Of a DNA stretch of 64,000 bases, positions 3,614-41,962 are shown piece after piece. The stretch lies in NCBI GenBank assembly GCA_043819135.1, contig JBDRFG010000106.1, positions 809 to 64,808 of the forward strand. The letters run 5' to 3'. The stretch is from Candidatus Eiseniibacteriota bacterium. GTDB lineage: Bacteria > Joyebacterota > Joyebacteria > Joyebacterales > Joyebacteraceae. The notes under the pieces are model-generated. The model had not been told where the DNA came from. It ran no database searches and worked only from the letters and a program-made list of their open reading frames with translations. The translations under genes were made by a program, and so were the position numbers. Position 1 is the first letter of the stretch. Every line of letters begins with the position of its first letter.

Positions 3614-4807
3614 GTGGCGAGGAGACTGATCCTTACGGGCAACGATGCGACCGCGGAGGCGATGCGGCAGATCGATCCCGACGTGGTCGCCGCTTTTCCT
3701 ATCACCCCACAGACTGAGCTGATGCACAAGTTCGCGGAGCACGTGGCCGATGGGGACGTGAAGACCGAGTTCGTGCTTGTCGAATCGGAGCACAGCGCGA
3801 TGAGCGCGGCGGTCGGAGCGGCGGCGGCGGGGGCGAGGGTCATGACGGCTACGTCGGCCAACGGGCTGGCGCTGATGTGGGAGATAGTCTATATCGCGGC
3901 GTCGTACCGGCTTCCCATAGTCATGCCGGTGGTGAACCGCGCGCTGTCGGGTCCCATCAACATCCACTGCGACCACAGCGATACGATGGGTTGCAGGGAT
4001 TCCGGATGGATACAACTGTACTCCGAGGACGCGCAGGAGGCCTACGACAACGTTCTGCAGGCGATAAGGATCGCCGAACATCCGGATGTTCTGTTGCCTG
4101 TGATGGTGACTTTCGACGGGTTCATCATCAGCCACACGGCCGAGGTTCTCGAGGGACTCGAGGACGCGGAAGTGAAGAGCTGGGTCGGGGAGCACGAGGC
4201 GAAGTACTCGCTTCTGAACACCGACGATCCCGTGACGTTCGGCCCGCTCGATCTTCAGGACTACTACTTCGAGCACAAGAGGCAGCAGACGGAGGCGATG
4301 TGGCGCGCTCCGGCCATCATCAAGGAGATCGGGAGGGCATACGGAGAGCTGTCCGGGCGCTCGTACGAGCTCATCGAGAGCTATCGGCTGGAGGACGCCG
4401 AACTCGTCGTCGTGGCCATCGGTTCGACGTGCGGCACCACGAAGGTGGTCGTCGACGAGTTGAGGGAGAATGGCACGAAGGCTGGTCTTCTGAAGATACG
4501 CTCGTTCCGGCCCTTCCCGGAGCGTGAGATAGCGGAGGCCCTCAAGAACGCCAAGGCGATAGGGGTGCTCGACAGGTCGATATCGTTCGGCGCGCCGGGC
4601 GGTCCGGTCCACAAGGAGATCAGGGCTGCGCTGTACGGGACCGGCCGTGAGATCGGGATCGTCAACTACATCTACGGACTCGGTGGACGCGACATGTCGA
4701 TGGAGAACATCAAGACGGCCTTCGCCGGACTCGAGAAGGTGGCCAGCGAAGGAACGCCTGACGACAACATCCGGTTCCTCGGACTGAGGGGCGAGGGAGG
4801 AGTGTAA
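3614..4807 (+). CDS. porA: 2-oxoacid:ferredoxin oxidoreductase, alpha subunit
   Basis: MARRLILTGNDA...ITPQTELMH...SEHSAMSAAVGAAAAGARVMTATSANGL matches the PFOR alpha subunit (domains I-II). Confidence 0.85.
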   Translation: MARRLILTGNDATAEAMRQIDPDVVAAFPITPQTELMHKFAEHVADGDVKTEFVLVESEHSAMSAAVGAAAAGARVMTATSANGLALMWEIVYIAASYRLPIVMPVVNRALSGPINIHCDHSDTMGCRDSGWIQLYSEDAQEAYDNVLQAIRIAEHPDVLLPVMVTFDGFIISHTAEVLEGLEDAEVKSWVGEHEAKYSLLNTDDPVTFGPLDLQDYYFEHKRQQTEAMWRAPAIIKEIGRAYGELSGRSYELIESYRLEDAELVVVAIGSTCGTTKVVVDELRENGTKAGLLKIRSFRPFPEREIAEALKNAKAIGVLDRSISFGAPGGPVHKEIRAALYGTGREIGIVNYIYGLGGRDMSMENIKTAFAGLEKVASEGTPDDNIRFLGLRGEGGV

Positions 4808-19695: not shown

Positions 19696-19769
19696 TGGGG
19701 CGTCGTCAAGTGGCAAGACACGGGACTTTGGATCCCGCCTCGGAGGTTCGAATCCTCCCGCCCCAGCCA
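19696..19769 (+). tRNA. tRNA-Gln (anticodon TTG), CCA encoded
   Basis: Hand-folded cloverleaf. Acceptor stem TGGGGCG/CGCCCCA, discriminator G and an encoded CCA. D-stem GTC/GAC. Anticodon stem CGGGA/TCCCG with loop CTTTGGA. T-arm GGAGG-TTCGAAT-CCTCC. The ends resemble E. coli tRNA-Gln (TGGGG...CCCCAGCCA). Confidence 0.85.
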
Positions 19770-27839: not shown

Positions 27840-29150
27840 ATGCTCCCACTCGTCGCGGTGACGACGATCTTCGTTGCCGCTTACTTCTTCATCGTCACCG
27901 AGCGGCTTCATCGAACGACAATAGCCCTGGCGGGAGCCCTTGCGGTCCTGCTCCTGCCGGGGCTATCGCTGTCCCAGGAAGAAGCGGTCGGTTTCATAGA
28001 CTTCAACACCCTGGGCCTGCTCATCGGCATGATGCTCATCGTGGCCGTGCTTACGAGGACCGGTCTGTTCAAGTACCTTGCCCTCGTAGTGGCGAAGCGC
28101 GGCAAGGGGAGGGTCTTTCTGATCTTCGCCGGCTTCGCCGCGATCACCGCGGCCAGCTCGGCCCTCATCGACAACGTAACCACCGTCCTGATGATCGTCC
28201 CCGTCATCTATCTCGTCTCCGATCTCCTGGGCAAGAACGTCGTGCCGTTCCTGGTCATGGAGATAATCATGGCCAACGTAGGCGGAATGGCGACCCTTAT
28301 CGGCGACCCGCCCAACATACTGGTGGGCAGCCGTGCCGTCGTTCCGGGCATGTCAGGACATCTCTCGTTCATGGATTTCCTCGTCAACCTCGGGCCGCTT
28401 GCGCTCGTATGTCTCGTTGTCAGCCTGCTCTACCTGAGATTAGCGGGGCAGAGGGAGTTCTTCGCCCCTCCGCCCGAGGCCAAGAGGATGGCACTGGAAT
28501 CGATGGACGCGACGCAGGCGATACGAGACCCCGCGTTGCTCCGCCGCACTCTCGGGGTGCTCGGTCTGGTGCTCGCCGGATTCGTGTTCCACCACGTGCT
28601 GGGACTCGAACCTGCGACCGTCGCGCTCGCAGGCGCGGCCGTCCTGCTCGTAGTGACGCGCATCAACCCGGAGGAGCTGCTTGCGGAGGTCGAGTGGGGA
28701 GTGCTCTTCTTCTTCGTCGGTCTGTTCGTTCTCGTCGGCGCCCTGGAGAAGGTGGGAGCGGTTGATCTCCTGGCACGCGGCGTCCTCGGGGCGTCGGACA
28801 GCCCGGCGATCCTGATGGTCATCATCCTCTGGGGAACGGCCATCACCGCCTCACTGATATCGGCGGTTCCCACGGTCACCGTATTGATACCCATGGTGCA
28901 GATCATCGTGAATCACCTGGGCGCGGCCGACCCGGGCGTTGCGCTGGGCTTCTGGTGGGCGCTGGCGGCGGGTGCGTGCCTCGGTGGGAACGCGACCGTG
29001 GTCGGCGCGGCGGCGAACATGGCGGTAGTGGGTCTTTCGTCCAAGGAACGAGAACCGCTCTCGTTCGCCACCTACGCGCGGATGGGTGTGCCCGTCACGG
29101 CGCTCTGCCTGGTCGTCACGACGGCGTACATGCTCCTGAGATACACGTAG
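27840..29150 (+). CDS. ArsB/NhaD-superfamily anion permease (citrate/arsenite transporter-like)
   Basis: The protein has about 12 TM helices and the two-repeat architecture. DNVTTVLMIVPV and GDPPNILVGS match the ArsB/NhaD/YbiR family. Confidence 0.6.
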   Translation: MLPLVAVTTIFVAAYFFIVTERLHRTTIALAGALAVLLLPGLSLSQEEAVGFIDFNTLGLLIGMMLIVAVLTRTGLFKYLALVVAKRGKGRVFLIFAGFAAITAASSALIDNVTTVLMIVPVIYLVSDLLGKNVVPFLVMEIIMANVGGMATLIGDPPNILVGSRAVVPGMSGHLSFMDFLVNLGPLALVCLVVSLLYLRLAGQREFFAPPPEAKRMALESMDATQAIRDPALLRRTLGVLGLVLAGFVFHHVLGLEPATVALAGAAVLLVVTRINPEELLAEVEWGVLFFFVGLFVLVGALEKVGAVDLLARGVLGASDSPAILMVIILWGTAITASLISAVPTVTVLIPMVQIIVNHLGAADPGVALGFWWALAAGACLGGNATVVGAAANMAVVGLSSKEREPLSFATYARMGVPVTALCLVVTTAYMLLRYT

Positions 29151-29212
29151 CGTCGCTCGAGCGCAGGACAAGGCACGGCGGACCGGCGCCGAACCACGGC
29201 CCCACCAGACAG

Positions 29213-29245
29213 ATCGAGGGGCGGCCTTGACGGCCGTCCCTCGAT
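29213..29245. terminator. strong bidirectional hairpin between convergent genes
   Basis: ATCGAGGGGCGGCC-TTGAC-GGCCGTCCCTCGAT forms a 14-bp stem with one G.T wobble. It lies between the + strand permease stop (29150) and the - strand gene stop (29270). There is no clear U-tract on either side. Confidence 0.5.
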
Positions 29246-29269
29246 TGATCTCAGGTCACTTCCGGAAGA

Positions 29270-30520
29270 CTAGCGGTACATGGCCTTGATGCTGCCCCAG
29301 CTCTGCGCCTCGACCGGCGAACCGGTCCAGTCCTCGAGCCAGGTGTCGTCAAGCATGACGCCGGCGCCACCAGCGGCACCCGGACCGCAACCGTTGTCGG
29401 TCGAGTAGAACGTGATCTTGTACCGGAACGCCGTTCCCGGCAGCAGCGGGCTGATGTCGTAACCGACGATTCCGCTCGTGCCCCATCCGTCGCACTGGCC
29501 GAAGTCGCCCCAGAACGCCGCGGTCATGGTCCAGCTGCCGCCACCGTCCACGCTGACTTCCTCTGTCCAGTAGTCGTTGTCGACCGTCGGCACCTCGGCG
29601 TGAATAAGCATGCGAAGCGTGCACGTGACGCTTCCGACGATGCTCACGGCGGGGGAGATCAACGAGTTGTTGAGATTCGGAGGCGTCAGGGACGTGTCGG
29701 CGGCGTCGCCGCACCACCAGCTGTGCGGGTCGCTGTAGGCGATACACGCACGATCGATGATGTGCCACCAGTCGCCGGCCGAAGACGGGATGCCGGAGAC
29801 GCAGAGGCCGCCGCTCTCGCCGTCATCGTAGAAGTACACGTAGCCGCCGAAGTAGTCGAACACCTTCACGTTGTCGCACATGAAACCGCCACCGACCGAC
29901 AGATAGTGGCCGTCCTGATCCGACCAGCCGCCGTCCGACAGGAAGCGGAAGCGGGCGTTGAGCGGATTGTCGTACGCATCCAGGATGAAGCCGTAGAGAC
30001 CGATGTCGGTCCACGGCTGCTTGCCGTCGTAGCCCTTGTTCAGGTTCACGTAGACGCCGAGGCTCTCGGCCTGAACGTACGTGTAGTCGTAGCCGGCCTC
30101 CGAGTCGTGACGGAACGCGTAGGTCAGGATCGGGTACGTGGCACCGGTCAGGTCCACCGTCGGGATGACCAGCCTGTCATCCCAGCTGTTGCCGTAACCA
30201 CCGTCCGCGTCATAGTCGAAATTACCGCACCACCAGGACTGTCCGCGCCCTCTGCTCGCGGGCGGCTCGTAGGCCATGTAGGTGTCCAGATGGAAGTGGG
30301 GAACCGAGGTGGCGGTGTTGTCTTCATGCGTCCAACCGGCGACGCCGCCCTCCATGTCATCGAAATACAGGATGACGGGGCTGCGCGACGCGTACGCGTC
30401 GATCTGATCGGTGTAGCTGGCAACGGTCTTCCGCGCGGTCGCGGTCGTGGCAAGTGCAAACACCGCGGCGACGACCATCATCACACAAAGCGTTCTCTTA
30501 AGCATCGTTTCGAACTCCAT
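29270..30520 (-). CDS. secreted hypothetical protein with internally duplicated Trp/Tyr/Asp/Gly-rich domain
   Basis: This is the only substantial minus-strand gene. It has a signal peptide (MLKRTLCVMMVVAAVFALATTATA; an alternative start is at 30505). Two roughly 150-aa repeats each begin S-W-W-C-G (SWWCGNFDYDADGG... and SWWCGDAADTS...). I see no catalytic motif. Confidence 0.6.
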   Translation of the reverse strand: MEFETMLKRTLCVMMVVAAVFALATTATARKTVASYTDQIDAYASRSPVILYFDDMEGGVAGWTHEDNTATSVPHFHLDTYMAYEPPASRGRGQSWWCGNFDYDADGGYGNSWDDRLVIPTVDLTGATYPILTYAFRHDSEAGYDYTYVQAESLGVYVNLNKGYDGKQPWTDIGLYGFILDAYDNPLNARFRFLSDGGWSDQDGHYLSVGGGFMCDNVKVFDYFGGYVYFYDDGESGGLCVSGIPSSAGDWWHIIDRACIAYSDPHSWWCGDAADTSLTPPNLNNSLISPAVSIVGSVTCTLRMLIHAEVPTVDNDYWTEEVSVDGGGSWTMTAAFWGDFGQCDGWGTSGIVGYDISPLLPGTAFRYKITFYSTDNGCGPGAAGGAGVMLDDTWLEDWTGSPVEAQSWGSIKAMYR

Positions 30521-30938
30521 GTTGAAGCCCTGGGTTATGAGAAGGATCGTACGACTCCCTCTCGTTCACTACGATGTCGCCCCGCAACTCTCGTGCCCCG
30601 GGTGTAACAACGTGCGTCTCGCTTCCCTCCCCGGCTACGCCCGCGCTCGGTGATTCACCGTCCCCGCAACCTTCGTCGGGGGTCCCGCACGCCTTCTGTT
30701 CGTGCAAGTGACGTGCCAAGCCGGATACGATGCAGACGTAACTGGCACGGCAGCGGGGGATTAGAGCGCCCGCGGGCCTCTGCGGGACTTCGGCACAAGA
30801 TCTGGGGCGCCGCTGCTGTGAAGCGAATCGCGGCGGACGATGATCGTGCACGCCGCCGATTGGCAGCGTGCCCCGTACAAACTGCGCCCCGCCAGATGCT
30901 AGGGACGGGCCCTTCGCGACTTACGCGGGCAAAACCCC

Positions 30939-30967
30939 TTGACCACCCGTTCATGGACGGATATTCT
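30939..30967 (+). promoter_or_regulatory. putative sigma70-type promoter upstream of selA
   Basis: TTGACC (30939-30944), a 17-nt spacer, then TATTCT (30962-30967). It lies about 80 nt upstream of the selA ATG. Confidence 0.4.
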
Positions 30968-31049
30968 GACGCCATCACCGATCATTCTTGGCCGCGATCC
31001 AAAGCGGCCGTTTTGAGGCGCGGGCTTCAGGGAGCGTGCGGGCTGACGT

Positions 31050-32462
31050 ATGACCGACAAGAGAAGACTGAGCGCGATACCGTCCGTCGATGCAGTGCTG
31101 GCTCATCTCGAGGAGAGAAGCCTCAGCACAGTACAGCCTACGCCCATACTGACCCGTCTCGTCAGGGAGATACTCGAACGCGAGCGCGCGGCAATGCTCG
31201 CCGGCGAGGGGCACCACGGGGACACCCCCGAGGACACACGCGCCGGTATCCTCAGGAAGGTGGAGGCGGAGGTCCTGCGCTCGCCTGCCCGCGGTCTCGT
31301 GCCTGTCATCAACGCCACCGGCGTGGTCGTTCACACCAATTTGGGAAGAGCGCCGCTCTCTGAAGAGGCCGTGGCGGCGGTTGCGGAGATTGCGCGAGGG
31401 TACTCGAATCTGGAGTACGACCTGATCAGGGGCACTCGCGGGAAGAGGGACTACCTTGTCAGGGACGCGCTGTGCGAGCTGACCGGCGCCGAGGACGCTC
31501 TCGTGGTGAACAACAACGCGGCGGCCGTCCTCCTGGTTCTGAACACTCTCGCCGCCGGTCGCGAGGTCGTCGTATCGCGAAGCGAACTGATAGAGATCGG
31601 CGGCTCGTTCAGGCTTCCGGACGTGTTCGAGCGCAGCGGCTCGCGCATGGTCGAGGTCGGAACGACGAACCGCACACACCTGTCGGATTTCCGGGACGCC
31701 ATCAGGAGCAGCACAGGGGCGCTCATGTCAGCGCACTGGAGCAACTACTCGATCTCGGGATTCGTCGAGCGCGTTTCGTTGAGCAAACTCGCCTCACTGG
31801 GAGAGCGCTTCGGCATTCCCGTTATCCATGACCTTGGAAGCGGCATCCTCATCGATCCCGCGAAGCTCGGGCTTTCCGGAGAGATGACGGTGGCTGAGAG
31901 CGTCTCCGCCGGAGCGACCGTCTCGACCTTCAGCGGCGACAAGATCCTCGGAGGCCCGCAGGCCGGCATCGCGGTGGGCACGGAGAGCGCCATCTCGCGC
32001 ATGAGGGCGAATCCCCTGATGCGAGCGCTTCGCCCGGGCAAGCTGACTCTGGCCGCCCTGTCGGCGACGCTCGCAAGCTACCTTCGCGGCGACGCAGAGA
32101 CGTCGGTCCCCGTGTTGTCAACGATCCTGGCGCCTCTCGATTCGCTTGCCGGAAGGGCCGAGCGAATGGCCAAGTCGCTGTCGTTGGCGCTGGGCGAGGG
32201 GGCGCGGGTATCGGCGCGTGAACTGGAAGGGCGCGTGGGCGGAGGCGCCGCTCCGGAGATAGTCATACCCAGCAGCGGGATCGAGATAGAGCCGCGCGGG
32301 AGCGTCACCGCGGGATCGGTTACGGCCGCGATGCTCGCGGCGTCACCGGCCGTCGTCGCGCGCACACAGGACGACCGCATAATCGTTGACTTGAGAACCG
32401 TCCCTGAAGACCAGGACAGCGCGGTCGTCGAGGCCCTGATCCACGCGTTCGGGGAGAGGTAA
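31050..32462 (+). CDS. selA: L-seryl-tRNA(Sec) selenium transferase
   Basis: INATGVVVHTNLGRAPL, the PLP region GGSFRLP and FSGDKILGGPQAGI with the PLP lysine are present. The protein is about 470 aa. Confidence 0.85.
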   Translation: MTDKRRLSAIPSVDAVLAHLEERSLSTVQPTPILTRLVREILERERAAMLAGEGHHGDTPEDTRAGILRKVEAEVLRSPARGLVPVINATGVVVHTNLGRAPLSEEAVAAVAEIARGYSNLEYDLIRGTRGKRDYLVRDALCELTGAEDALVVNNNAAAVLLVLNTLAAGREVVVSRSELIEIGGSFRLPDVFERSGSRMVEVGTTNRTHLSDFRDAIRSSTGALMSAHWSNYSISGFVERVSLSKLASLGERFGIPVIHDLGSGILIDPAKLGLSGEMTVAESVSAGATVSTFSGDKILGGPQAGIAVGTESAISRMRANPLMRALRPGKLTLAALSATLASYLRGDAETSVPVLSTILAPLDSLAGRAERMAKSLSLALGEGARVSARELEGRVGGGAAPEIVIPSSGIEIEPRGSVTAGSVTAAMLAASPAVVARTQDDRIIVDLRTVPEDQDSAVVEALIHAFGER

Positions 32463-32464
32463 CA

Positions 32465-34003
32465 GTGGAATACACATCCGTGTCGGGAGCGACCACACAG
32501 CAGTTCGAACACCTTCGCGAGTCCGGAGTGCTCTCCGAGGGGGTGACCCTGGAGCGTTCCGGCATCGCGCGGTCACCCGTGCTCGTGCGACCGGTCGTGG
32601 GAGACGCCCTCGACGGCTGGATGCCTAGGATCGAACAATCCATCGGCGTCGTGAAGGGCGTTGTCGCTTTTTCGGGATCCGACATGGCGGAGACCGCCCA
32701 GATCGCGGCGGCCGCGGCCGCGTGGCTCGGCGACCGAGGAAGAACCGTAGTTCTTGTGGACGCGTCCGTCGAGCGCCCCGTTCTCGGGAAGCCTCTTCCA
32801 GAGGACGGGGACGAGGGTCTGGTGGACGCGGTCCTGTTCGGCGTGTCACCTCCGGCGGTCGTCAGACGTACGCTCTCGTCCGGGGTCCGTGTGGTCACGA
32901 CGGGATCACATCCGCTTTCGGTCGATCGCGTGTTCGAGGGCGGTGAACTCTCCGGTGTCCTCAGGGGACTTGCGGAGGAGGCCCTCGTTCTCGTTCTCGT
33001 GCCTCCCGCCAACCTCGCGATGACGTCCGAAGCGCTCGACGCCGTCATCTGCATCGCCGGGAGCGTGGCCGAAGTCGAATCTCTCGCATCGTGCATAGAG
33101 GGCGTCAGGACGACGGGGGTCCACGTCCGCGATCAGGTCGAGAAGGTCGCCGACACCGAGCGGGCCGGCGAGCCATCTGAACTTCCGCCAATCGTCCTGC
33201 CGGCGCGCGAGCGGCCCGGCGAGCCGGTGGACGCGGAGGCGCAGGCGGGGGAGCTGACGCCGACGCGCCCGGAGCTGATGCACGGCGAGGGCGGAGACGA
33301 ACCCGACGACACCGAGGAGCCACGGCATACGCCCATTGTGCTCGGCGCGTCGTCGCCCCCTCGAACGCGGCCTGACCATCTGGCCTCCACGGTGGCGGTC
33401 GCAGTTATACTCGTGATAGCGACGGTTCTATGGTGGTACATGGACGGACAGCGGAGGTTCTACTCCGCTCCCGACGGACCCGCCTATACGGGACAGGAGC
33501 AAGTGACCGAAAGCGGGGACTCGGAGCCCGACGGGGGCGGTCCACCAGCTTCAACTGAGACGGGCGAGGAAACGACGGGACAGGACGGAGCGAGCGACGA
33601 GGCACCAGGCGTCGAGGGGGAAGGACCGACCGACGGTCGACCCTCAGCTGCCGTGGAGCCCGGGGAGTCGGGCGATGAGGGCGGCGCAACTGCCGCCGCC
33701 GTTCCTCAGGCGGGCGAGCGTCCCGACGGAGCCCCGCTGATAAGCGGGCCCGGCGGGTCGTACAGGATCATGGTCAGCTCACACCACCGCGAATCGGCGG
33801 CGGAAGTTGAGGTAGCCGAACTCAGCGAACGGGGCGTCGTGGCCGAAGTGATGGCAGCGGAGGTAGCGGACAGAGGAACCTGGTTTCGCGTGCTGGTGTC
33901 CGGCGGATACCCGACGCTCGCGAGCGCCAGCGCGGTCCTTGACACAATCAAGAGTTTCGGGTATGAAGGTGCCTGGGTAGGGCGCGCACCACAAAGCGAA
34001 TAG
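32465..34003 (+). CDS. SPOR-domain cell-division protein with degenerate ParA/MinD-like N-terminal domain
   Basis: The N-terminal ~200 aa have a ParA/MinD-like layout but lack the P-loop (VVAFSGSDMAETAQIAAAAAAWLGDRGRTVVLVDAS in place of KGGVGKT). One TM helix follows (LASTVAVAVILVIATVLWWY). Then comes an acidic Gly/Glu/Pro-rich linker and a C-terminal SPOR domain (YRIMVSS...TWFRVLVSGGYPTLASASAVLDTIKSFGYEGAWV). Confidence 0.6.
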   Translation: MEYTSVSGATTQQFEHLRESGVLSEGVTLERSGIARSPVLVRPVVGDALDGWMPRIEQSIGVVKGVVAFSGSDMAETAQIAAAAAAWLGDRGRTVVLVDASVERPVLGKPLPEDGDEGLVDAVLFGVSPPAVVRRTLSSGVRVVTTGSHPLSVDRVFEGGELSGVLRGLAEEALVLVLVPPANLAMTSEALDAVICIAGSVAEVESLASCIEGVRTTGVHVRDQVEKVADTERAGEPSELPPIVLPARERPGEPVDAEAQAGELTPTRPELMHGEGGDEPDDTEEPRHTPIVLGASSPPRTRPDHLASTVAVAVILVIATVLWWYMDGQRRFYSAPDGPAYTGQEQVTESGDSEPDGGGPPASTETGEETTGQDGASDEAPGVEGEGPTDGRPSAAVEPGESGDEGGATAAAVPQAGERPDGAPLISGPGGSYRIMVSSHHRESAAEVEVAELSERGVVAEVMAAEVADRGTWFRVLVSGGYPTLASASAVLDTIKSFGYEGAWVGRAPQSE

Positions 34004-38569: not shown

Positions 38570-38592
38570 CCTAGGTGACAGCTGAATACATG

Positions 38593-38706
38593 TTCCTTCG
38601 GGGCGGGGTGCAAATCCCCACCGGCGGTTACAGCCCGCGAGCGGAGCGATCCGCAGAGCCTGTGAAATCCAGGCGCCGACAGTGAGAGTCTGGATGGTAG
38701 AAGGAA
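38593..38706 (+). promoter_or_regulatory. FMN riboswitch (RFN element) aptamer
   Basis: The RFN consensus blocks are present: TTCGGGGCGGGGTGCAAATCCCCACCGGCGGTTA, AGCCCGCGAGC and GCCGACAGTGAGAGTCTGGATGGTAGAAGGAA. A P1 helix forms between ttccttc and gaaggaa. It sits upstream of ribD. Confidence 0.85.
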
Positions 38707-38743
38707 CCGGCACGGGAGGTGAGTCTCTTCCTGTGCCCCTTGA

Positions 38744-38777
38744 GCGCCCCGAGGGATGTACGGGGCGCTTTTCTGTT
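38744..38777 (+). terminator. intrinsic terminator (riboswitch expression platform)
   Basis: GCGCCCCG-agggatgta-CGGGGCGC forms the stem-loop and is followed by TTTTCTGTT. It lies between the aptamer and the ribD Shine-Dalgarno/GTG start. Confidence 0.75.
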
Positions 38778-38845
38778 GCCCCGCCTGCGGCCGCACCCGG
38801 CACGGCAACGCGCGGGAACGACATCACCCCGGGAGGAACAGAGGC

Positions 38846-40024
38846 GTGAGCACTATCGCCGGAAGCCCGAAGAAGGCCTTCGACGTGCTGGATTCCGCCT
38901 TCATGGAGCGCGCGTTCGAACTCGCGAGGCGCGGCCGCGGGGCGACCAGCCCGAATCCGGTCGTCGGCGCCGTGATCGTCAAGGACGGCGAGGTCGTGGG
39001 AGCGGGCTATCACGAACGGTACGGAGGCCCTCATGCCGAGGTCAACGCCATCGCCGAGGCTGGCGAGAAGACGTCCGGCGCGACGCTCTACGTGACGCTC
39101 GAACCATGTTGTATCTCGGGTAACACGCCGCCCTGCACCAACGCGGTAATCGCGGCCGGCATCAGTAGGGTCGTGGTTCCCATCGAGGATCCGAACCCGA
39201 AGGTCTCGGGACGCGGTCTGTCCATCTTGCGAGAGGCGGGCGTCGAGGTGGACTTCGGCCTGATGCGCGACGCGGCGCGGACCCTGAACGCGCCTTACTT
39301 CAAGTTCCGACGAACCGCACTGCCGTTCACGACGCTTAAGCTTGCGCTCTCGCTGGACGGACGGATCGCGCCGCCCACGGGCGGCCCCCGCTGGACCTCG
39401 TCGCGCGCGTCGCGCGCGCTGGTCCACTCGATGCGGGCAGAGGCCGACTGCGTAATGGTCGGTGTCGGAACGGTGCTTGCTGACGACCCGCGGTTGACGG
39501 CCAGGAGGGTGGACGACGCGGGACCGGGCGCCGGCGATGTCCGACAGCCCGTTCGGCTGGTCCTGGACACCCACCTGCGCGTTCCCCTGGATTCGGAGGT
39601 GGTCACGGGCGCACGCGAGGTCAGAACCATCGTGGCCGGCGGCGAGAACGCGAGCGGTTCGGCGGCCGGCGCTCTCGAGGAGAAAGGCGTCGAGATCTGG
39701 CGGTGCAAGGAATCCGACGGGACGCTCGACCTTCGCGACGTGCTCAAGCGCGCCGCCTCTGATGGACTCATCTCGGTCCTCGCCGAGGGGGGCGCCACGG
39801 TGGCGACTTCGCTCTTGTCAGATGGGCTGGTGGACCGCGTGGCCTTCTTCGTGGCGCCCAGGCTCTACGGCGCGGCCGGGCTGCCCGCGCTGGCTTCGCT
39901 CGACGAGCGCTGGTGGGGCGGGGGCTCGAGGTTTGTCGGCGGAAGGTGGACGGAGATCGGCGGGGACTGCTTGTTCGAGGCCGATGTGCTCACGGCGGAC
40001 CCTGAAGCCGCAGAGGAGGAGTGA
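38846..40024 (+). CDS. ribD: bifunctional diaminohydroxyphosphoribosylaminopyrimidine deaminase / 5-amino-6-(5-phosphoribosylamino)uracil reductase
   Basis: The deaminase zinc motifs HAEVNA and PCC...PPC are present, followed by a C-terminal reductase domain. I start it at the GTG at 38846, which has GGGAGGAACAGAGGC upstream. The track ORF starting at 38756 would overlap the terminator. Confidence 0.8.
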   Translation: MSTIAGSPKKAFDVLDSAFMERAFELARRGRGATSPNPVVGAVIVKDGEVVGAGYHERYGGPHAEVNAIAEAGEKTSGATLYVTLEPCCISGNTPPCTNAVIAAGISRVVVPIEDPNPKVSGRGLSILREAGVEVDFGLMRDAARTLNAPYFKFRRTALPFTTLKLALSLDGRIAPPTGGPRWTSSRASRALVHSMRAEADCVMVGVGTVLADDPRLTARRVDDAGPGAGDVRQPVRLVLDTHLRVPLDSEVVTGAREVRTIVAGGENASGSAAGALEEKGVEIWRCKESDGTLDLRDVLKRAASDGLISVLAEGGATVATSLLSDGLVDRVAFFVAPRLYGAAGLPALASLDERWWGGGSRFVGGRWTEIGGDCLFEADVLTADPEAAEEE

Positions 40025-40702: not shown

Positions 40703-41962
40703 ATGAAACAAGATGTCGAGAGGGTGGAGGCCGCGATAGAGGAAGTCCGGCAGGGCAGGATGGTCATCGTGGTTGATGACGAGACCAGGGAGAACGAGGG
40801 AGACCTGATCATGGCCGCGGAGAAGGTGACACCGGCGGCGATCAACTTCATCTCCCGTGAGGGGAGGGGGCTCATCTGCGTTCCGATGACCGGCGCGCGA
40901 CTTGATGAACTGGACCTCCATCCGATGGTCGGGAAGAACACGTCGATCATGGGCACGGCCTTCGCCGTGTCCGTCGACGCCGTCCGAGGTACGACGACCG
41001 GCATCTCGGCGCACGACCGGGCCACCACCATCAAGGCTCTGGTCGACTCGAACACCCGGCCGTCCGACCTCGGGAGGCCCGGTCACGTATTCCCACTGAG
41101 GGCAAGCGAGGGCGGCGTGCTGAAGCGGGCGGGCCACACGGAGGCTGCCGTGGACCTCTCCAGACTCGCCGGTCTCATGCCCGCCGGGGTCCTCTGTGAA
41201 ATCATGGGTGAGGACGGGAGCATGGCGAGGATGCCTGAGCTCGAGCAGATGGCGAAACGTTTCGACATGCGCATAGTGAGCGTCCGCTCGCTGATAGAGT
41301 ACCGCCAGTCGACGGAGAGACTGGTGCGCGCCGTGGCTCGAACGGTTCTGCCAACGAGGTACGGTGAGTTCGATCTCACGCTGTACGAGAGCGACCTCGA
41401 CGACAACCCCCACCTGGCGCTCGTCAAGGGGAACCCCGGACCGGACAAGGACGTGCTGGTCCGAGTCCATTCGGAGTGTCTGACGGGCGACGTGTTCGGC
41501 TCGGCGAGATGCGATTGCGGAGACCAGCTGGGACATGCGCTCATGGCAATAGAGCGTGAGGGCGAAGGCGTCTTCCTCTACATGCGCCAGGAAGGTAGAG
41601 GCATAGGCCTCCGCAACAAGATCAAGGCATACGAACTTCAGGACCGCGGCAGGGACACGGTGGAGGCCAACGAGGAGCTGGGCTTCGACGCCGACCTTCG
41701 CGACTACGGCATCGGGGCGCAGATCCTAGCGGACCTGGGGGTCCGCCGCATCAGGCTCTTGACAAACAACCCGAAGAAGGTGGTCGGCCTCGAGGGCTAC
41801 GGCCTGACCATCGTGGAAAGAGTAGGGATAGAGATAGAACCCAACGAGAAGAACAGAAGGTATCTGACGACCAAGAGGGAGAAACTGGGGCACTTACTGG
41901 AGTTTGAGAGCTGTGCAGTAGGCGAGAACGGGTGCGGCTCCGATGCGGAGCACGACGACTAG
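40703..41962 (+). CDS. ribBA: bifunctional 3,4-dihydroxy-2-butanone-4-phosphate synthase / GTP cyclohydrolase II
   Basis: The DHBP synthase domain has RENEGDL. The GTP cyclohydrolase II domain has the zinc ligands CxxGxxxxSxRCDC ([16 protein letters not shown]). Confidence 0.9.

Follow-up and report, generated by a model that had tools for sequence, protein, structure and literature searches.

The locus studied here raises a simple question: is a gene that stands alone on the strand opposite to all its neighbours a recent acquisition or an old part of the genome, and what does it encode? The gene lies on the minus strand of a 64,000-nt stretch of DNA, referred to below as the window (contig JBDRFG010000106.1 of assembly GCA_043819135.1, Candidatus Eiseniibacteriota bacterium). 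The original prediction, which was made from the nucleotide sequence of the window, regarded it as an inserted gene for a secreted protein with two aromatic- and Asp-rich repeats. Our analysis led to a different answer. Judged by synteny and base composition, the gene belongs to the core of the Eisenbacteria/Effluviviacota lineage and has been inherited vertically. The explanation that we prefer, with a confidence somewhat above even, is that of a core gene driven by a sigma-54-type promoter, whose product would be an exported binding protein composed of two MAM-like domains and a docking or anchoring tail. The tail motif, which is conserved, and the putative sigma-54 promoter had both been overlooked in the original prediction. 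The gene looks like an ordinary core gene for a surface protein, as yet uncharacterised; a product of a known domain class from an uncultured lineage is, on its own, modest news.

Conserved position of the gene

We found 452 homologues of the predicted protein at 55-89% identity, and those labelled with an organism originate from Candidatus Eisenbacteria. A scan of species-representative genomes revealed 112 relatives, which were present only in metagenome-assembled genomes (MAGs) labelled Eisenbacteria, Effluviviaceae or unnamed 'bacterium'. The family is multi-copy, with 4-6 or more paralogues per MAG. Several such MAGs belong to the proposed phylum Candidatus Effluviviacota (VGIX01), a sister of Eisenbacteria; the paper describing the Effluviviacota genomes does not mention the family (PMC11323493).

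In 30 loci, derived from approximately two dozen assemblies, the closest copy of the gene occupies the same slot, in the same orientation, as in the window. It is divergent from selA, convergent with genes for a CitMHS/ArsB transporter and a peptidyl-prolyl isomerase, and located downstream of rpsF-rpsR-rplI. Across these loci, its product shares 50-89% identity with the protein of the window, and SelA 52-91%. The common slot, together with this SelA-like divergence, indicates vertical inheritance with the housekeeping neighbours.

The same data bear on a recent horizontal insertion, i.e. the placement of a foreign secreted-protein gene head-on within a co-oriented housekeeping block. This idea arose from features that are real: the gene is the sole one on the minus strand in 64 kb, a strong hairpin follows its stop codon (29213-29245), and the intergenic region on its other side, given earlier as ~530 nt, comprises 529 nt (30521-31049). 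Nevertheless, insertion is refuted by the synteny, since position and orientation are retained in 30 loci whose SelA is only 52-91% identical to that of the window; presence in the same place in the relatives is what the original prediction had itself named as contrary to an insertion. The comparison of local GC and codon usage suggested at that time gave a native composition (GC of 0.63-0.65, which matches the window, and a GC content of third codon positions, GC3, of 0.86). The flanks of the gene contain no repeats, integrase, mobility gene or tRNA gene, and both the terminator and the length of the spacer are conserved in the relatives. The gene that comes and goes at this site is the adjacent CitMHS/ArsB transporter gene (27840-29150 (+) in the window), which is absent from loci L002/L015, L005 and L047, and truncated and accompanied by small ORFs in L001. 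With these results, an insertion is scarcely credible. More generally, insertion cannot be concluded from a solitary head-on gene flanked by a hairpin and a long spacer; at this locus, the hairpin and the spacer represent native regulatory parts, namely a predicted terminator and predicted divergent sigma-70 and sigma-54 promoters.

A predicted exported protein with two MAM-like domains

The GC contents of the first, second and third codon positions of the open reading frame (ORF) are 0.56, 0.49 and 0.86, a pattern seen in the real genes of the window, which identifies it as coding. The protein has 411 aa if translation begins at the second ATG (30505-30503), corresponding to M6 of the ORF. 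This ATG is probably the true start, since it is preceded by a conserved GGAG and most homologues begin at the position equivalent to its MLKR. The GGAG, located 9 nt before the ATG, pairs with ATGGAG of the window in the aligned orthologous upstream regions.

The N-terminus shows the classical positive-hydrophobic-AxA pattern of a Sec-type signal peptide (MLKRTLCVMMVVAAVFALATTATA), with no lipobox, and A29 is nearly invariant in the alignment of homologues. This signal peptide was read from the sequence; the export calls for other proteins below come from a crude heuristic signal-peptide test. The mature protein would comprise ~387 aa (42.4 kDa) and is acidic (pI 4.15), with 12.7% Gly, 10.3% Asp, 7% Tyr and 4.4% Trp. 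Thus, the signal peptide postulated earlier is recognisable as a signal-peptide-like N-terminus, and the postulated richness in W, Y, D and G is confirmed.

The original prediction also described two repeats of ~150 aa, each headed by SWWCG. The duplication is real: the two halves match only marginally in BLASTP (E 0.019), but a profile-profile comparison with hhalign aligned them over 156 columns (residues ~50-226 vs ~228-400) with a probability of 92.7% and an E value of 4.1e-7. This comparison and the AlphaFold2 model described below were built on an alignment of 46 homologues. The repeat unit is longer than had been assumed (~175-180 aa); it opens with (V/I)xFxDDxExG, and SWWCG is an internal motif located ~45 residues inside each unit. 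Domain 2 additionally contains an Asp-box-like sequence, SVDGGGSW (BNR match in Pfam, E 0.11).

AlphaFold2 predicted two beta-sandwiches (mean predicted local distance difference test score, pLDDT, of 80.6), with strands of domain 1 (residues 49-222) mostly above 85, followed by a disordered tail. In this model, the signal peptide, the two jelly-rolls and the tail account for the whole chain. The best whole-chain match in a Foldseek search of the PDB was the tandem CBM22-1/CBM22-2 of Xyn10C (4xup, E 2e-7), and the MAM-like domain of Bacillus InhA2 was also retrieved (4yu5/4yu6, E 2.6e-6 to 1.2e-5, probability 1.0); further matches included reelin repeats, Eph ligand-binding domains, MAM and meprin. 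The structure prediction called for at the outset and the Foldseek search thus both agree with the beta-sandwich-like character proposed from the sequence.

At the sequence level, the relationship is with Pfam family PF20773 (InhA-like_MAM). The protein of the window matches it at residues 109-155 with 15.5 bits (gathering threshold 26.9, E 0.013). Among its 46 close relatives, 21 match the family at E<0.1 (best E 3.9e-8), and a distant relative, P0172, does so with an E value of 6.4e-20 and carries the pattern SWWCG...GYGNxW...DYDFxYVxVSxDGGxTW within the match. The search for remote homologues proposed earlier has thus yielded a domain-level relationship, which is weak for the sequence of the window itself, and no functional assignment. 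We found no match of this protein in NCBIfam, and a search of PDB sequences with the family profile returned nothing at E<=10.

The MAM-like domain of InhA (M6 metallopeptidases) resembles the domains described here in its beta-jelly-roll fold and in several sequence features: (i) a (D/E)FE-like start strand, (ii) SWWxG...GYGNxW, (iii) L.SP.ixL and (iv) DxDY...vS.DGG.(S/T)W. Unlike InhA, the protein of the window has no M6 catalytic domain and no HExxH N-terminal to the MAM domain; it consists of two MAM-like domains in tandem and nothing else but its own C-terminal tag, and comes from a different phylum. Tandem carbohydrate-binding modules (CBMs) and galactose-binding-like domains (CBM22 of 4xup, reelin, Eph) likewise consist of two consecutive jelly-roll sandwiches, and the present product, as modelled, would share with them an acidic, aromatic-rich and probably calcium-stabilised character. 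However, the identity is only 9-17% (12-13% for CBM22) and the likeness is at the fold level only; the protein has neither a CBM or glycoside hydrolase match in Pfam nor an attached glycoside hydrolase. The most fitting description of the protein is a pair of InhA-like MAM domains without a catalytic attachment.

A role as an enzyme with an unrecognised active site, e.g. a Cys/His or metal-dependent hydrolase in which the jelly-rolls are catalytic, also has to be considered. Its residues would be the invariant H77/H253/H307 and C98/C270 beside the WW motifs; His, Cys and many Asp residues are invariant in the 46 sequences, conservation is high along the entire length (mean column identity of 62%), and paralogues adjoin genes for C25 peptidases, sulfatases and InhA-like proteins. 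Against this, neither Pfam, NCBIfam nor the search of PDB sequences assigned the protein to a catalytic family, no peptidase or glycosidase signature was found, and a motif search detected no HExxH. Each of the two domains has its own copy of the His and SWWCG motifs, and these are found again in the MAM-like domain of InhA-type proteins, which is non-catalytic; this fits a structural role, and six conserved Cys in an exported protein fit disulfides. The probability of such an enzyme is small in our estimation. The original prediction, which had seen no recognisable catalytic motif, stands in this respect; it also stands in that no function is evident and none can be assigned, and its suggestion of a binding or surface protein is still plausible.

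A portable C-terminal tag

The last 15 residues of the protein (PVEAQSWGSIKAMYR) follow the pattern PVExxSWGxIKAMYR-stop, with a wider form PVExx[ST]WGx[IV]KA[LM]YR-COOH, and are as conserved in the family alignment as the domains. In a consensus of 86 non-redundant tags, W and K are present in 100%, V, G and R in 93-98%, E in 90% and Y in 88%. AlphaFold2 predicts this tail as disordered or as a short helix (pLDDT <50). There is no Pfam or NCBIfam model for it, NCBIfam was also blank for ten other tag carriers, and a literature search with tag strings found nothing relevant and no paper with the motif.

The specificity of the motif was examined with the pattern W-[GSTAN]-x-[IVLM]-[KR]-[ASGT]-[LMFIV]-[YFW] in all six frames of 1.34 Mb of related loci. 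Of the 113 matches obtained, 98 reach to within 1-2 residues of a stop codon, 14 belong to family members with the motif in an internal loop, one is a doubled tag and none is stray. Family members account for 84 of the 98 C-terminal carriers. The remaining 14 are unrelated to the family: they carry Beta_helix/PMP or FG-GAP repeats or a cohesin domain, or have no domain that is known. When a degenerate DNA pattern for the tag was used to scan metagenomes, at least 150 tagged ORFs were detected in at least 120 loci. Among the matches listed, 11 belong to the family and 139 do not, the latter including beta-helix/PMP and DUF11 proteins and many small proteins with no known family, often in tandem arrays; the GC content of the contigs listed ranges from 0.49 to 0.71. 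Homologues sought with a low-GC tag carrier were taxonomically uninformative. According to the crude heuristic test, 170 of 217 tagged ORFs (78%) have signal-peptide-like N-termini, compared with 4 of 31 control genes (13%). The tail motif is therefore portable and occurs on unrelated proteins with signal-peptide-like N-termini.

The arrays of small ORFs were observed at several loci (L172 2057-4777 (-), L180, L147, L117 and L198). They contain three to five ORFs of ~170-250 aa without a known family, each ending in PVExSTWGxVKALYR and often with one or two Cys just upstream of PVE. Locus L011 encodes a 212-aa protein (4077-4715 (+)) with two copies of the tag 19 residues apart (...TTWGCVKAMFY...TNWTRIKALYR-stop).

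The tandem-MAM module also occurs without the tag, at the head of proteins of 900-1800 aa (P0121, P0123, P0136, P0141, P0166 and P0172), where it is followed by beta-helix, cohesin or BACON domains and by a FlgD_ig/Por_Secre_tail end of the kind found in cargo of the type IX secretion system (T9SS). Similarly, of 120 beta-helix/PMP homologues, 66 end in the tag, 20 in FlgD_ig/Por tails and none in both; one of the tagged examples is labelled Gemmatimonadota. As judged from these sequences, the tag and the T9SS C-terminal domains are mutually exclusive in two cargo families. One sub-family, represented by P0122, P0128, P0146 and 12 loci, has the tag in a loop of domain 1, between LxLPP(I/V) and PVLTFxYRHDSE, with charged linkers around it, and lacks the C-terminal copy. 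The AlphaFold2 model of this variant shows the tag as a helix (residues 110-119, pLDDT 54-59) surrounded by low-confidence linkers.

Comparison with known sorting signals

The tag behaves statistically like a protein-sorting or anchoring tag, and from its sequence distribution it appears to be an undescribed label of this type that reaches far beyond the family. It resembles the C-terminal domains of T9SS cargo (Por_Secre_tail, PF18962; FlgD_ig, PF13860) in that an N-terminal Sec signal is combined with a C-terminal element common to unrelated exported proteins, and in that homologous heads bear either the T9SS domain or the short tag, never both. However, known T9SS signals are folded domains of ~70-100 aa, whereas the tag comprises 15 residues and can occupy an internal loop, and the protein of the window contains no Por_Secre_tail, FlgD_ig or CHU_C domain (Pfam, NCBIfam).

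A second point of reference is provided by the small tripartite C-terminal sorting signals (LPXTG, PEP-CTERM, GlyGly-CTERM and MYXO-CTERM), the criteria for which were taken from bioRxiv 10.1101/2023.06.07.544157. Like these, the tag is located at the extreme C-terminus, occurs many times per genome, contains several invariant residues, and is carried by otherwise unrelated proteins with signal-peptide-like N-termini. Unlike these, it has no transmembrane helix or hydrophobic segment and no Arg cluster (only a single terminal Arg), and neighbourhood clustering identified no sortase-like partner. The tag thereby departs from the rules of every described small sorting signal, also in tolerating an internal position.

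Two further explanations of the tail were weighed against these data. According to the first, the tail would be a minimal signal read by the type IX system, or an interfacial helix binding to the membrane or lipopolysaccharide, like the C-terminal amphipathic anchor of PBP5. The mutual exclusivity described above is in line with this, as are the T9SS-type cargo encoded by the same MAGs and the grouping of W, I, M and Y along a single face of the helix, next to K and R. The length of 15 residues and the internal-loop variant, which argues against a signal threaded or cleaved from a free C-terminus, speak against the T9SS version; the hydrophobic moment of the tag helix does not stand out from those of shuffled sequences, 31% of which were as high or higher, so that the idea of an amphipathic anchor is not supported. 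We regard either version as rather unlikely.

The second explanation is that the family forms a self-assembling surface scaffold, in which the tail of one subunit docks on a MAM domain of the next. Paralogues with the internal-loop tag would then be self-complemented caps, and the same docking site would accept the remaining tagged proteins (beta-helix, cohesin, FG-GAP, DUF11), by analogy with a cohesin-dockerin or S-layer display system. Such a scaffold would agree with (i) the multi-copy family being the main tag carrier in the MAG loci of the lineage (84 of 98 tagged ORFs), (ii) the unusual conservation of the whole surface, (iii) the paralogues which have the tag in the domain 1 loop in place of a C-terminal one and (iv) the prediction of the tag as a tethered helix. 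On the other hand, AlphaFold2 docks the tag neither in the cis-tail nor in the cis-loop form, and most tagged proteins among the metagenome matches listed (139 of 150) are not members of the family. On balance, a scaffold of this kind is a minority possibility, unlikely but worth keeping in mind.

The broadest reading is that the tail is the address label of an undescribed envelope sorting or anchoring route, which would stand in for the T9SS domain in hundreds of unrelated exported proteins of Eisenbacteria/Effluviviacota and of uncultured lineages close to them, requiring no transmembrane segment and tolerating an internal loop. The tandem-MAM family would then supply the main cargo of this route, or else act as its receptor or scaffold on the surface, with one copy under sigma-54 control. 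We put this forward as a tentative proposal, which we hold to be somewhat more likely wrong than right. If the tag is real, it could be used to predict the surface proteomes of several candidate phyla, and phylogenetic profiling could be directed at finding a new receptor or sorting enzyme.

Predicted promoters, leader and terminator

Inspection of the spacer between the gene and selA revealed two putative divergent promoters. The sigma-54 -24/-12 consensus is TGGCACG-N4-TTGCW, and the window contains a single match to it (TGGCACGTCACTTGCA), exact including the spacing (TGGCACG-N4-TTGCA). The first ATG follows 198 nt downstream of this site, and the probable start 213 nt downstream. The GG at -24 and the GC at -12, canonically spaced as in sigma-54-dependent genes, precede the gene on its own strand. 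The element recurs, with 11 of 11 bases matching, 140-220 nt upstream of the gene in each of the 28 other syntenic loci for which upstream DNA is available, and its core is invariant in an otherwise unalignable spacer. The site is absent from most paralogue loci, and every copy which has it is the selA-adjacent one. We assume that sigma-54 is present in this lineage; the assignment is based on the promoter sequence and its conservation. It constitutes sequence evidence for a sigma-54 promoter in a lineage where almost nothing is known of gene regulation.

The same element could also be the operator of another conserved regulator, with transcription starting elsewhere. Motif searches detected no rpoN or activator gene in the window or in the 1.34 Mb of related loci, and ~0.9 matches per window would be expected by chance if one mismatch were allowed. 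Yet the match to the canonical consensus is exact, spacing included, has the right orientation and distance to the gene, and is the sole invariant element of the spacer in the 28 other loci; an exact 11-base match within 500 nt has a chance expectation of ~1e-4 according to our arithmetic. We consider an operator of this sort very unlikely. Just upstream of the -24 element lies a conserved block that corresponds to a GTAAC-N17-18-GTTAC dyad in other lineages; with low confidence, it is a candidate site for an activator or a DNA-bending protein.

For the divergent selA operon, a promoter scan indicated a sigma-70-type promoter within a conserved alignment block (1 site found vs 0.2 expected). 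The spacer measures ~540-630 nt in the seven loci read, with largely unalignable sequence, and its length is probably conserved because it holds the two divergent promoters.

The predicted 5′ leader contains, in addition to the real Shine-Dalgarno (SD) sequence GGAG (30515-30518), an internal SD-like GGAGG (30626-30630; AAGGAGG in most relatives) followed by a GC hairpin. An alignment of 16 orthologous leaders shows this GGAGG to be retained ~110-130 nt before the ATG. When these leaders were inspected by eye, neither a start codon nor a reading frame of a small ORF behind it proved to be conserved, which makes a leader peptide unlikely. A long leader with an SD-like GGAGG more than 100 nt before the start and no ORF behind it recalls the STAB-SD leader of cry3A of Bacillus thuringiensis, an mRNA-stabilising element (Agaisse & Lereclus 1996, pmid 8736542, as cited in PMC7509114). 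A transfer to the present lineage would be speculative and is a matter of resemblance only. STAB-SD acts through a Gram-positive, RNase J-related mechanism. An Rfam search of 29000-31200 at E<=1 found nothing.

Folding of the region 29200-29275 yielded the strong hairpin reported earlier (dG -34.9 kcal/mol, z -2.9). An equivalent GC-rich hairpin follows the stop codon in L001, L002, L003, L006 and L007, with different stem sequences (covarying stems). Judged by this covariation, the hairpin is a conserved terminator, as expected between convergent genes.

Proposed mode of action

Taken together, these data suggest the following course for the explanation that we prefer. The gene would be transcribed from the sigma-54 promoter and would be silent until an enhancer-binding activator fires. 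The leader may stabilise the transcript in the manner of STAB-SD, and the transcript would end at the intrinsic-type hairpin. After Sec export, the two beta-sandwich domains, probably with disulfides and putatively bound calcium, would act as a non-catalytic ligand-binding or adhesive head. The tail is envisaged as a short, flexibly tethered docking or anchoring peptide, which would fix the protein to a common envelope or surface receptor and play the part that the type IX secretion C-terminal domain plays in the homologous long proteins. The occurrence of the tag in an internal loop makes cleavage or a mechanism dependent on a free C-terminus less likely, and docking of the peptide in a groove more likely. 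Sigma-54 and activator dependence, the stabilising leader, the binding or adhesive role and the docking of the tail are all steps that we infer.

Several results weigh against this explanation. The fold matches (CBM22, reelin, Eph, MAM) are generic jelly-rolls, the match of the window protein to PF20773 is below the threshold, and the high full-length conservation with invariant His and Cys could also mean an enzyme or a lattice protein. As regards the tail, AlphaFold2 docks it nowhere, its helical hydrophobic moment is unremarkable, and neighbourhood clustering of non-syntenic paralogues revealed no dedicated receptor or sorting gene, only a second conserved slot (see below). On the side of regulation, motif searches of the window and the 1.34 Mb of related loci found no RpoN box or GAFTGA motif, i.e. 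neither rpoN nor a gene for an enhancer-binding protein; RNAalifold gave no consensus structure for the 16 orthologous leaders, and the minimum free energy of the single leader sequence is not exceptional (z -1.2). The coordinates of all features of the gene are summarised in Table 1.

Table 1. Features of the gene for the tandem MAM-like protein and of its flanking regions in the window
Feature	Position	Strand	Details
ORF of tandem MAM-like exported protein	29270..30520	(-)	416 aa as listed; stop codon 29270-29272
Predicted Sec-type signal peptide MLKRTLCVMMVVAAVFALATTATA	30434..30505	(-)	M6-A29 of ORF, cut before RK; read from sequence
Domain 1, InhA-like MAM / jelly-roll beta-sandwich (predicted)	29843..30379	(-)	residues ~48-226; SWWCG at 30224-30238
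Domain 2, homologous to domain 1	29318..29842	(-)	residues ~227-401; SWWCG at 29708-29722
C-terminal tail tag PVEAQSWGSIKAMYR	29273..29317	(-)	last 15 residues, directly before stop codon
Predicted GC-rich terminator hairpin between convergent transporter gene and the gene	29213-29245	(-)	folding and relatives
Putative 5′ leader, ~185 nt	30506..30692	(-)	transcription start inferred from promoter
Putative sigma-54-type -24/-12 promoter TGGCACGTCACTTGCA	30703..30718	(-)	exact consensus match, conserved
Conserved block CTAATCCCCC...GTTACG (CTAATC...GTTACG), candidate regulatory site	30737..30764	(-)	alignment; just upstream of -24 element
Putative sigma-70-type promoter TTGACC-17-TATTCT of divergent selA operon	30939..30967	(+)	promoter scan and conserved alignment block

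Paralogues and neighbouring genes

Paralogues of the gene occupy a second conserved slot in L009 (1-11215), L054, L069, L076 and ~10 more loci. There, the gene is divergent from those encoding a GlmU-like nucleotidyltransferase (NTP-transferase), a TonB_C protein and an S55 (SpoIVB-like) peptidase. The block also contains a ~700-aa Big_13/WD40-like protein and a sigma/anti-sigma pair of the extracytoplasmic function (ECF) type, with C25 peptidases and FlgD_ig proteins encoded downstream; the copy in this slot has no sigma-54 site.

Tandem duplicates of the tandem-MAM gene were found in L006 (1732-4385; 407 and 406 aa) and L010 (10001-13054; 401 and 401 aa), the latter adjoining genes for a 978-aa PAS/GAF sensor protein and for InhA-like_MAM/FlgD_ig proteins. 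In another sequence, P0188 (576 aa), the C-terminal ~70 residues typical of the family, comprising the end of domain 2 and the tag, are joined to an unrelated, cytoplasmic-looking N-terminal part of ~500 aa; this may be a chimeric assembly or gene call and not a real protein.

Among the neighbours of the gene, the least conserved is the SPOR-domain protein encoded after selA (32465-34003 (+)), with 39-70% identity across the loci. It contains a long, low-complexity middle part rich in acidic residues, Pro and Gly.

Strand organisation of the window

The earlier statement that the gene is the only real one on the minus strand holds for credible ORFs of at least 150 aa. Every other ORF of this size with a coding GC signature is located on the plus strand. 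High GC3 is also found in a few other ORFs of the minus strand, but they lie over stronger plus-strand genes; Pfam matched these plus-strand genes (LPG_synthase_TM, Lum_binding) and not the minus-strand ORFs.

The strand bias is extreme over the whole window (1-64000): apart from this gene, the plus strand carries all credible genes, the single tRNA gene (tRNA-Gln, 19696-19769) and a riboswitch. Most 1-kb windows have a positive GC skew, and the cumulative skew climbs from 0.08 to 4.03. The bias and the skew are consistent with one long leading-strand block holding a single head-on gene.

The riboswitch is of the flavin mononucleotide (FMN) type (RF00050, 111.6 bits; 38590-38709 (+)) and is placed directly 5′ of the riboflavin genes, which comprise ribD (38756-40024), a riboflavin synthase/Lum_binding gene and ribBA (40703-41962).

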